In this document: piece after piece, positions 48,801-51,800 of the stretch
Position numbering within the stretch: position 1 is the stretch's first letter
How the letters are laid out: each line of letters begins with the position of its first letter
Assembly: GCF_057098645.1 (NCBI RefSeq)
Contig: NZ_CM169472.1
Reading direction: 5' to 3' (one strand)
Length of the DNA: 64,000 nt
Made by a program: the position numbers

Positions 48801-51800
48801 AGGGCGCTGAATGCGCGCCTTAGGGAGTTACTGACAGACATGAATAACCGGCCAATGAAGGGGTACGGCAATCAAACCCGTGCAGAACGCTTCCGCATAC
48901 TGGATGCGCCAGCACTCTCTCCGCTGCCTCTGGCACCTTATGAATACACGGAATACAAAGCTGTGAAGGTTGGCCCTGACTACCACGTTGAATATGCCCG
49001 TCACTGGTACTCCGTTCCACACGAACTGGTCGGTCAGCGTCTGTCACTGAAGGCGGGGCAGTCGGTGGTACAGCTCTGGCACAAGGGGCAGTGTGTGGCG
49101 CAACATCCGCGCAGCACACATGAATATAAACACACAACCAATCCGCTTCACATGCCAGAGCGCCACCGGCAGCACGGGACATGGACACCGGAACGCCTGA
49201 TCGAGCAGGGAAAACGTACGGGCCCGTCCACAGGCCGGGTGGTTGAATCCATGCTGAAGGCAAAACCCCATCCGGAACTGGCTTATCGTGCAGTTCTGGG
49301 GCTGCTGGCACTTCAGAAAAAATACGGCCCGGAACGGCTGGAAAAGGCCTGTTACGTTGCCCTGCACTATAACGCCCCTGACAGACGCTTTATCGACAAT
49401 CTGCTGCGTCACCATCGGGAGAACCTGGAGCTTCCATTATCCCGCCAGGGCGAACAACATCCGGCATATGCTTCAGAGCATGAAAACCTGCGTGGTCCGG
49501 GCTACTACCACTGACAGAAGGAACAACAGTATGAGTGATAACCTGTTAAACAAACTGACCCAACTGAAACTCCCGGCGATGGCCGGGAGCCTGATACGGC
49601 AGCGGGAAACGCCTCAGACCTACGACGAACTGTCGTTCGAGGAAAGGCTGACGCTGCTGGTTGATGACGAGCTTCTGAGCAGGGAAAACAGCCGTGTGGC
49701 ACGGTTGAGAAAAAATGCCGGCCTGAAATACCAGGCAACACCGGAAGGGCTGCGCTATCCGGCCTCAAGAGGTCTGCGGGCTGAACAGATGAGAGAACTG
49801 CTGAACGGCCACTACATAACCCACAGGAAAAACCTGCTGATAACCGGTCCGACAGGATGTGGCAAGAGCTGGATAGCCAATGCGCTGGGCGAACAGGCAT
49901 GTCGACAGAAACACAGCGTCCGGTACTGTAGAACCGGGCGATTACTGGAACAACTGGCTCAGGGACGTGTTGATGGCAGCTGGCTGAAATATCTGAAACA
50001 GTTGCAAAAAATACAGGTTCTAATCCTGGACGATCTGGGGCTGGAACAGTTAAGTAACGCCCAGTGTAATGACCTTCTGGAGCTCATAGAGGATCGTTAC
50101 GGACAAAGCAGCACGATAGTGGTAAGCCAGTTCCCGGTAGATAAATGGCATGGTCTGATGGAGAACCCAACAACAGCAGATGCCATCCTGGACAGACTGG
50201 TACATAACTCACACCGAGTGGTCCTTCAGGGAGAGTCACTGAGGAAAAATCCCCCGGTAGTGGAAAGCAGCGAAAAAACGCGTTAAAAAGCGGTAGAAAA
50301 AGTTAAGTTCCCGGTTGATCGAATGGATGCGAATCGCTGATCGGACTTCGATGCCAATCCGTGATCGAATAGAGCGGAATACGCACATGCGGGAAGCACG
50401 CTGGATCTCCGACTGGAATGACTGTGAATTTGCCGAAATTTTGATAATCAGTTCACGTAACGTCGCCATTAACCTTTCTCCGGGCGCAAAAAAACCGCCT
50501 CAGCGATTCTCATCATTTATGACTGTGCTGCAAGGCTCAGCGCGTCTTCCAGCGCCGCAAACGGATCCACCTCCGGCTTGTCCTCATCCTCTCCCCAGCA
50601 GAGCATGGCGTCCTTCAGTGCAACATTCACCCCCTGCGCCCCGAAAACCGCTTTCACGATCTGCGCATTACGGATATCCCCGCGCTCATCACCCAGCGGG
50701 GATATCCTGTCGAACTCCATCCACATCATCGCCTCGCTCGCACTCAGGCTGTGCCGCAGTTCGGATAAGGTGCGCCCCAGACGGAGCGCAAGTCGCATCA
50801 GAAAGCGAATTTCCGGGCGGGCTACTTTTTTCTGGCCGACTCTGCATCAGCGATCAGGTCCAGTGCCTGACGCAGCAAGCGGGCATGTACCGGACCATAG
50901 ACGGCCAGCACCTGCTCACGGTCGTCCGGAGTGAACACCCGCTGCAGGTCCGTATCACACAGAACATCGCAGAACAGCGTCACATCCGCTTCCAGATTAC
51001 GGCGAGTTTTCGCCACCACCGACAGGGTCTCGTCACCCGCATCACCGCCATCCAGCACTTCCCGCCACAGATACCAGGCCTCTGCCGAAGGCTCCCGCAG
51101 CACCACGCTGACATTTCCCCATTCCGGCACCTTCACCGTTTTATGACGGAACCCCGACAGCCTGGCCAGTGCCAGTGTTTTCAGATCTTTTGCCATAAGC
51201 CTTATCCGCCCGCACCATTAACCGTTACCGTACACGCGTCAGAGGTAATGCTCTGCGGCTGTTCTGCAGAATCCATTACCATGCAGGTATAAGCCCCCTT
51301 ATCACCTGACTGCGCATTGGCTTTACTGAAAGTGTCAGTAGTCTGTCCCTCGACCGGCTGACCATCCTTCTTCCAGGCGTATTTATAAGGCGGCGTTCCC
51401 CCGTTGACACTGACTGACATTGTCAGCAGCGCACCTGTATTCACGGTAAGTGTCTTCTCCGGATTTTTCATAAACGCCAGCGGTACCACATAAGAAACAG
51501 GCTTACCTTTCAGTCGCAGTGAGAACGTTGCAGCCACCACGCCGTTGGTACCGGATGACCAGGTGTGCTGACGCACTTCCGCCAGGAACTTAAAGCCCTT
51601 ACCGGACGGAAACTGCACCTTAAACGCATACACCGTGTCATTATCATAGGCATCACGCAGGGCATTCTGAGCCTGATTAAGATAAAAGTTGCCCGACATG
51701 GAAATCTCGGACGATGCGCCCAGACCGTTGATATTCTCCTGCTCTGTGGAGCAGAGCGTGGTCACATCAATATCCTGTTTCTGCCCGGCGGTGAACTGGA

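Follow-up and report, generated by a model that had tools for sequence, protein, structure and literature searches.

A probable -1 frameshift on A_AAA_AAG in the G/GT tail assembly chaperone gene pair of a defective HK97/lambda-type prophage

In phage lambda, the tail assembly chaperones G and GT are made at about 30:1, the second by a -1 frameshift (Levin, Hendrix & Casjens 1993; Xu, Hendrix & Duda 2004, 2013, 2014, cited in PMC5009743). Both bind the tape-measure protein via the G part, and the T part, produced solely within GT, binds the major tail protein and nucleates polymerisation of the tube; both are required for tail assembly, which is known for lambda only, and neither is found in the virion (PMC5009743). 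Here we describe a locus of this class in a stretch of 64,000 nucleotides (nt) of contig NZ_CM169472.1 (RefSeq assembly GCF_057098645.1), referred to as the window throughout. We read it, with a probability of about 0.93, as the gene pair for the G/GT tail assembly chaperones of a siphovirus prophage of HK97/lambda type, with a -1 frameshift on the slippery heptamer A_AAA_AAG. The feature is already known, both as a family and as an exact sequence.

The exact sequence comes from Antonov et al. 2013 (NAR 41:6514, PMC3711429), who grouped 41 predicted frameshift genes (fs-genes) that resemble an HK97 protein into a 'phage tail assembly chaperone' cluster. Two members of this cluster were tested in E. 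coli MG1655 ΔlacIZ with a GST-(insert)-MBP reporter and gave 6% and 7% frameshifting (PMC3711429). The 'Phage_TAC' insert, from fs-gene 15618692, is 75 nt long and showed 7% ± 0.79 of -1 frameshifting (PMC3711429 Table S2); within the window it matches exactly once, on the minus strand at 50777..50851, with no sequence difference. The published 7% refers to the reporter cassette, not to the native genes or to this strain. The other tested insert, with 6%, carries the heptamer G_GGA_AAG, as in phage mEp390 (PMC3711429).

As in lambda, the locus lies between the genes for the major tail and tape-measure proteins; it also has the same combination of a short 0-frame and an extended -1-frame product with an efficiency of a few per cent and no need for RNA structure, and a T domain homologous to lambda T (PF06223). 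It differs in the heptamer, which is G_GGA_AAG in lambda, in a 0-frame stop codon that abuts the heptamer, and in the G half, which belongs to the family of HK97 gp13 (PF06222) and not to that of lambda G. Four features of the G/GT class (Xu, Hendrix & Duda 2004), namely synteny, a -1 overlap, an in-register heptamer and conservation, are found here. Direct homologues are HK97 gp13 and gp13-14 (PDB 2OB9) and the corresponding proteins of HK75, HK106 and the mEp phages, with the same gene order and the same -1 relationship; the HK75 and HK106 fusions are 60% identical to the GT of the window, whereas HK75 reads CGG GAA AAG, without a perfect heptamer, and has an overlap of 52 nt as against 25 nt here. 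The heptamer itself, with slippage of tRNA-Lys, is shared with E. coli dnaX. The dnaX site, however, reaches about 50% and has two stimulators, a Shine-Dalgarno (SD)-like element upstream and a stem-loop downstream; neither is clearly detectable here, which matches the level of roughly 7%.

The G/T gene pair lies on the minus strand of the window. The G-like open reading frame (ORF; 50822..51196), found in the ORF list and by translation, encodes the 0-frame product of 124 amino acids (aa) followed by a TAG stop. Read directly, its 3' end is GCC AGA AAA AAG TAG. Direct reading and a pattern search both place the slippery heptamer A_AAA_AAG (codons AGA AAA AAG) at 50825..50831, where it stands in X_XXY_YYZ register relative to the 0 frame of G, and the 0-frame TAG (50824..50822) directly abuts it. 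Re-reading in the -1 frame from G50825 gives GTA GCC CGC CCG GAA ATT CGC TTT CTG ATG CGA, translated as VARPEIRFL-MRLALRLG. The nine linker codons from GTA to CTG (VARPEIRFL, 50799..50825) thus lead from the shift site to the ATG of the T-like ORF as usually annotated (50517..50798; 93 aa and a stop), the C-terminal domain of the fusion, and translation revealed no stop codon in them between the heptamer and the 93-codon ORF. The T frame is -1 with respect to that of G and overlaps G by 25 nt, with the heptamer inside the overlap. The whole GT coding unit, a 226-aa fusion via a -1 slip at 50831..50825, occupies 50517..51196, as supported by translation, by Pfam and by two-frame tblastn matches. 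A sequence-only reading of this stretch had proposed a G-like ORF ending with A AAA AAG and a -1 frame open into a 93-aa ORF. The heptamer is indeed at 50831..50825 in slippery register, the span given in that reading (50517..51196) coincides exactly with the two ORFs, and the stop directly after the heptamer in the -1 frame, which that reading had named as evidence to the contrary, is not present.

AAAAAAG occurs 22 times on both strands of the window, a moderate over-representation relative to the 12 ± 3 copies expected. Since the motif is so common, it is not evidence by itself, and a register-plus-extension test was used in its place. The window has 154 stop-to-stop ORFs with a length of 100 codons or more, and in eight of them the last 10 codons include an in-register X_XXY_YYZ. 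Only at the end of the G ORF does the -1 extension reach at least 90 codons (102 codons); the next best of the eight extends for 76.

Both halves have clear family assignments. The G half matches Pfam PF06222 Phage_TAC_1 over residues 1-124 of 124 (E 7.3e-58, 194.3 bits, cut-off 25), phrog_344 'tail assembly chaperone' (1.3e-44) and PDB 2OB9 (E 1.3e-45), which is gp13, the tail assembly chaperone of phage HK97 (PMC9603447). The T half matches Pfam PF06223 Phage_tail_T, the family of lambda minor tail protein T (E 8.7e-19, 68.2 bits, cut-off 25.9; profile positions 1-70 of 73), over fusion residues 152-221, and phrog_337 'tail protein' (8.5e-42). RefSeq homologues of the two are labelled 'phage tail assembly chaperone' and 'phage tail assembly protein T'; an NCBIfam scan of both halves matched no family. 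The fusion as a whole has a counterpart in phrog_14766, a 224-position profile of fused GT proteins, of which positions 1-122 match the first half and positions 125-224 the second. The latter match begins at residue 2 of the -1-frame segment, that is, upstream of the annotated T ATG.

The site is widespread. At an identity of at least 90%, the 781-nt region around it is present in 1245 of 5426 complete E. coli genomes, in up to seven copies per genome, and in 92 phage records, mostly of Stx1a-, Stx2a- and Stx2c-converting phages. A scan of viral contigs with the G protein gave only relatives at least 92% identical, so the resulting set of 82 close loci (80 IMG/VR contigs and two annotated records) speaks to invariance of the site and not to deep conservation. 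AAAAAAG-TAG is kept in all 82, and AGAAAAAAG-TAG is invariant there; codons near the site vary synonymously among these loci (GCC/GCA, GCT/ACC). The -1 extension is 102 codons long in 80 of them and 80 and 319 codons in the remaining two.

Distant relatives came from a tblastn search of the fusion against 50,697 phage genomes, which found 248 records. Every listed record that holds both halves gave two pieces in two reading frames, and no single-piece, in-frame GT match was seen among them. We compared nine diverged phages, from 67% down to 34% identity: HK75, Evi, Klebsiella phage ST13-OXA48phi12.4, Vibrio phage Pm34, mEp390, Burkholderia phages KS9 and vB_PR1, Halomonas phage H4907 and Bordetella phage PHB09. 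Each of the nine has T in the -1 frame with respect to G, and seven have a canonical in-register heptamer, A_AAA_AAG, G_GGA_AAG (mEp390), A_AAA_AAA or A_AAA_AAC. The other two, HK75 (CGG GAA AAG) and the Klebsiella phage (GCA AAG TAA), lack a perfect X_XXY_YYZ and have only its A_AAG half, with T still in the -1 frame. Their sites (L083 950..987 in HK75, L085 975..990 in the Klebsiella phage) suggest, by their sequence, that slippage may occur there on A_AAG in the A site only, in the Klebsiella phage right before the stop. A joined G-T coding sequence (CDS) was annotated by the authors of the KS9 record. In an alignment of ten lineages, the -1-frame peptide upstream of the T methionine is conserved as a P-[EGD]-x-x-F-L-M motif, and the methionine itself is present in nine of the ten, being replaced by leucine in KS9. 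Conservation of the peptide before the T start, together with the leucine of KS9, indicates that the region is translated as a continuation and not from the ATG.

The earlier calls of a G-like and a T-like gene agree with the matches to PF06222, PF06223, phrog_344, phrog_337, phrog_14766 and PDB 2OB9. The assignment to the conserved G/GT frameshift of long-tailed phages also stands, as the -1 relationship and a slippery site were found from 100% down to 34% identity, and the frameshift reporter proposed as a check has in effect been published for the identical 75 nt.

By analogy with lambda and from the reporter value, the following scheme can be proposed. The majority of ribosomes would translate the 124 codons of G and terminate at TAG. 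A minority, which amounted to about 7% in the reporter with the identical sequence, would slip by -1 on A_AAA_AAG and read on in the new frame, most likely by re-pairing of tRNA-Lys from AAA-AAG to AAA-AAA, in tandem or by A-site slippage; A_AAG after A_AA is highly shift-prone in E. coli owing to tRNA-Lys (PMC5009743). The product would be the 226-aa GT fusion with the lambda-T-like domain at its C-terminal end. Many G and few GT molecules may then coat the tape-measure protein via the G part. The T part may bring in the major tail protein and in this way let the tube polymerise around the tape measure, and both chaperones would be absent from the virion. A chaperone role of this G/GT pair is thus likely by analogy with lambda.

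Several observations weigh against a programmed ribosomal frameshift at this locus. Folding of 95 nt and 91 nt around and after the site and of the 50 nt downstream of it revealed no unusual downstream folding energy in the window (z = -0.9, -1.1 and -0.35), and none of the SD-like motifs GGAG, GAGG and AGGA is found in the 20 nt upstream of the heptamer, GCTGATGCAGAGTCGGCCAG. The fusion was measured from a 75-nt cassette and not from the native full-length gene pair or this genome, and the GST-MBP reporter cannot separate ribosomal from transcriptional slippage. Public annotation treats T as a separate 93-aa CDS with its own ATG. Finally, the tape-measure gene and gene J (see below) are broken in this prophage copy, so it is under no present-day selection for tail assembly.

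The last but one of these points belongs to the view that G and T are independent genes, with T initiated at the ATG at 50798 by re-initiation or coupling, 23 nt downstream of the G stop, and with an incidental heptamer. We regard this as very unlikely. Retention of the T methionine in nine of ten lineages and the 22 copies of the motif in the window would fit it, but there is no SD-like sequence within 15 nt upstream of the T ATG, the -1-frame peptide before this ATG is conserved and followed by leucine in KS9, a -1 frame for T is shared by all nine distant homologues, and the fused-GT profile phrog_14766 aligns across the junction. Moreover, the identical cassette yields 7% of GST-MBP fusion (PMC3711429), and T of lambda is made as GT only (PMC5009743). 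Less probable still is an origin of the fusion in transcription, through gain or loss of an A when RNA polymerase passes the A6 run. Transcriptional realignment is known to occur at poly-A runs (PMC3711429) and the reporter is blind to the difference; the run, however, has only six A, as compared with >7 A or 8 T for programmed transcriptional realignment (PMC3711429), A_AAA_AAG is established in dnaX as a site of ribosomal shifting, and the homologous G_GGA_AAG heptamer (mEp390; 6% in the same reporter) combines a homopolymer too short for polymerase slip with perfect ribosomal register. We infer that the slip at this site is ribosomal. Functional, inducible Stx phages, 1245 E. coli genomes and distant phages of other genera also have the two-frame layout with its heptamer, and the listed records with both halves lack a single-piece in-frame match, so that a decayed pseudogene, in which a 1-nt mutation broke a continuous GT gene, is scarcely credible, even though the prophage that carries it is clearly degraded, with a tape-measure gene split by an insertion sequence (IS), a truncated J and several transposases.

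Within the reading of a ribosomal -1 frameshift, the lack of detectable stimulators is consistent with lambda-like, low-level frameshifting at about 7%. A weak 9-bp hairpin is predicted 5 nt downstream of the heptamer in the window, with energies that are not unusual. The 50 nt downstream of the site were folded in eight lineages, and no shared structure was seen across the seven other than the window (z from -3.95 to +1.43). A downstream stimulatory structure as a required element was rejected on these grounds, the energies being unremarkable and a common structure missing. GAGG or GGAG is found upstream of the site in Evi, KS9 and the Halomonas and Bordetella phages and is not consistent across lineages; a dnaX-like upstream SD stimulator was rejected, as it is missing from the window. 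In five of the ten lineages, namely the window, Evi and Vibrio phage Pm34 (AAAAAAG-TAG), the Halomonas phage (AAAAAAC-TAA) and the Klebsiella phage (GCA AAG-TAA, without a canonical heptamer), the shift site is immediately followed by a 0-frame stop. It is conceivable, though rather doubtful, that the TAG next to the heptamer works as a 'shifty stop', at which slow termination would allow the slip and set the G:GT ratio of about 7% without RNA structure. If that were true, the ratio would depend on the activity of release factor 1.

The consequence of these results is mainly one of annotation. RefSeq (PGAP) and deposited Stx-phage records give G and T as two separate CDSs, without the slippage join that produces GT, and the correct products here would be the 226-aa GT fusion and the 124-aa G. 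This is textbook biology, the identical sequence has been measured already, and the locus opens no new question.

The genes around the pair are those expected of a tail module. Directly upstream of G on the minus strand is the gene of the major tail (tube) protein with a C-terminal Ig-like domain (51202..51918; phrog_158, 2.3e-117; Pfam Ig_2, Phage_TTP_11 and Phage_tail_2), whose RefSeq homologue is a 717-nt 'major tail subunit'; tail-completion gp17-like and HK97 gp10-like genes are located farther upstream. Directly downstream of T is the 5' fragment of the tape-measure gene (50386..50469, minus strand; start at 50469), 28 codons long, which matches phrog_339 with residues 1-29 and is collinear with the start of the intact tape-measure gene in NZ_CP028379. 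The remainder of this gene, for the client protein of G/GT, is found at 44583..47746 on the same strand (Phage_HK97_TLTM 1.3e-90, TMP_3, Tape_meas_lam_C) and is collinear with the tape-measure gene of the uninterrupted locus L001. The pair thus sits between the tail tube and tape-measure genes in the canonical order of tail tube, G, T and tape measure, and the order is identical in the nearest RefSeq homologue NZ_CP028379 (99.7% identical), in Stx-converting phages and in other phage records.

The two tape-measure fragments are separated by an ISSso4-like element of the IS21 family (istA/istB; 47747..50385, plus strand; 2,639 bp), as revealed by BLAST against L001 and by the junction sequences. 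It splits the gene 28 codons after its start and is flanked by a 5-bp target duplication, CATGC, at 47742..47746 and 50386..50390; istA is at 47868..49514 and istB at about 49521..50286, both on the plus strand. The queried part of the element (47747..50382, 2,636 nt) is 100% identical to E. coli copies annotated as 'IS21 family transposase' (IstA) and 'ISSso4 family helper ATPase IstB', and the tape-measure remainder (47746..44583) is otherwise collinear with its intact homologue. This break, which makes the prophage copy a defective one, was missing from the sequence-only reading. A second lesion appears to be a truncation of the gene for the tip attachment protein J homologue (38656..40320, minus strand; 554 aa with FNIII-A_GpJ and Phage-tail_3 domains), which ends beside an IS3-family transposase gene. 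With the tape-measure gene split and J truncated, the prophage is defective and unable to supply the client protein of G/GT. Its frameshift signal is intact, probably as a relic with no part in tail assembly here.

The left edge of the prophage is marked by the ssrA transfer-messenger RNA gene (32746..33108, plus strand; tag ANDENYALAA), and the prophage appears to be integrated at or beside it. Between ssrA and the tail genes are an rve-type transposase (33954..34859), an NleG type III effector ORF (35246..36208) and the IS3-family transposase (37884..38774).

Other features of the window were noted along the way. The portal ORF (56029..54665, minus strand) ends with TTC AGG GGG ATA CTG CGA AAA TGA, and a 405-aa ORF (54668..53451, minus strand) starts at an ATGA overlap with it, in the -1 frame (within 54660..54700). 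This two-frame layout is common to about 90 Stx-phage records. Phages 2851 and YYZ-2008 have G6 and not G5 at 14 nt before the portal stop and encode a single 'portal protein' of ~860 aa, and the portal homologue is labelled 'portal protein, frameshifted' in RefSeq. The pair may represent two coupled genes or contain a second -1 slip site; alternatively, the records of 2851 and YYZ-2008, which are older, may have a homopolymer error. The 405-aa ORF, which follows portal, contains a 162-bp tandem repeat (53911..54503; 3.7 copies, 91% match) that encodes 54-aa repeats (…DGRDYDPDVLQQAVNDAV…IPVPADGKSITPDDVRPMLEQMVKEAVSHIPVPR…); no convincing Pfam match was obtained for the ORF or its repeat. A tRNA-Glu(UUC) gene (6712..6787, minus strand) is located within a stretch of ~5.6 kb without long ORFs (about 3200..8800), which is probably a ribosomal RNA operon. 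It is followed by an 861-aa ORF (8858..11443, minus strand), part of the chromosomal context and unrelated to the frameshift.

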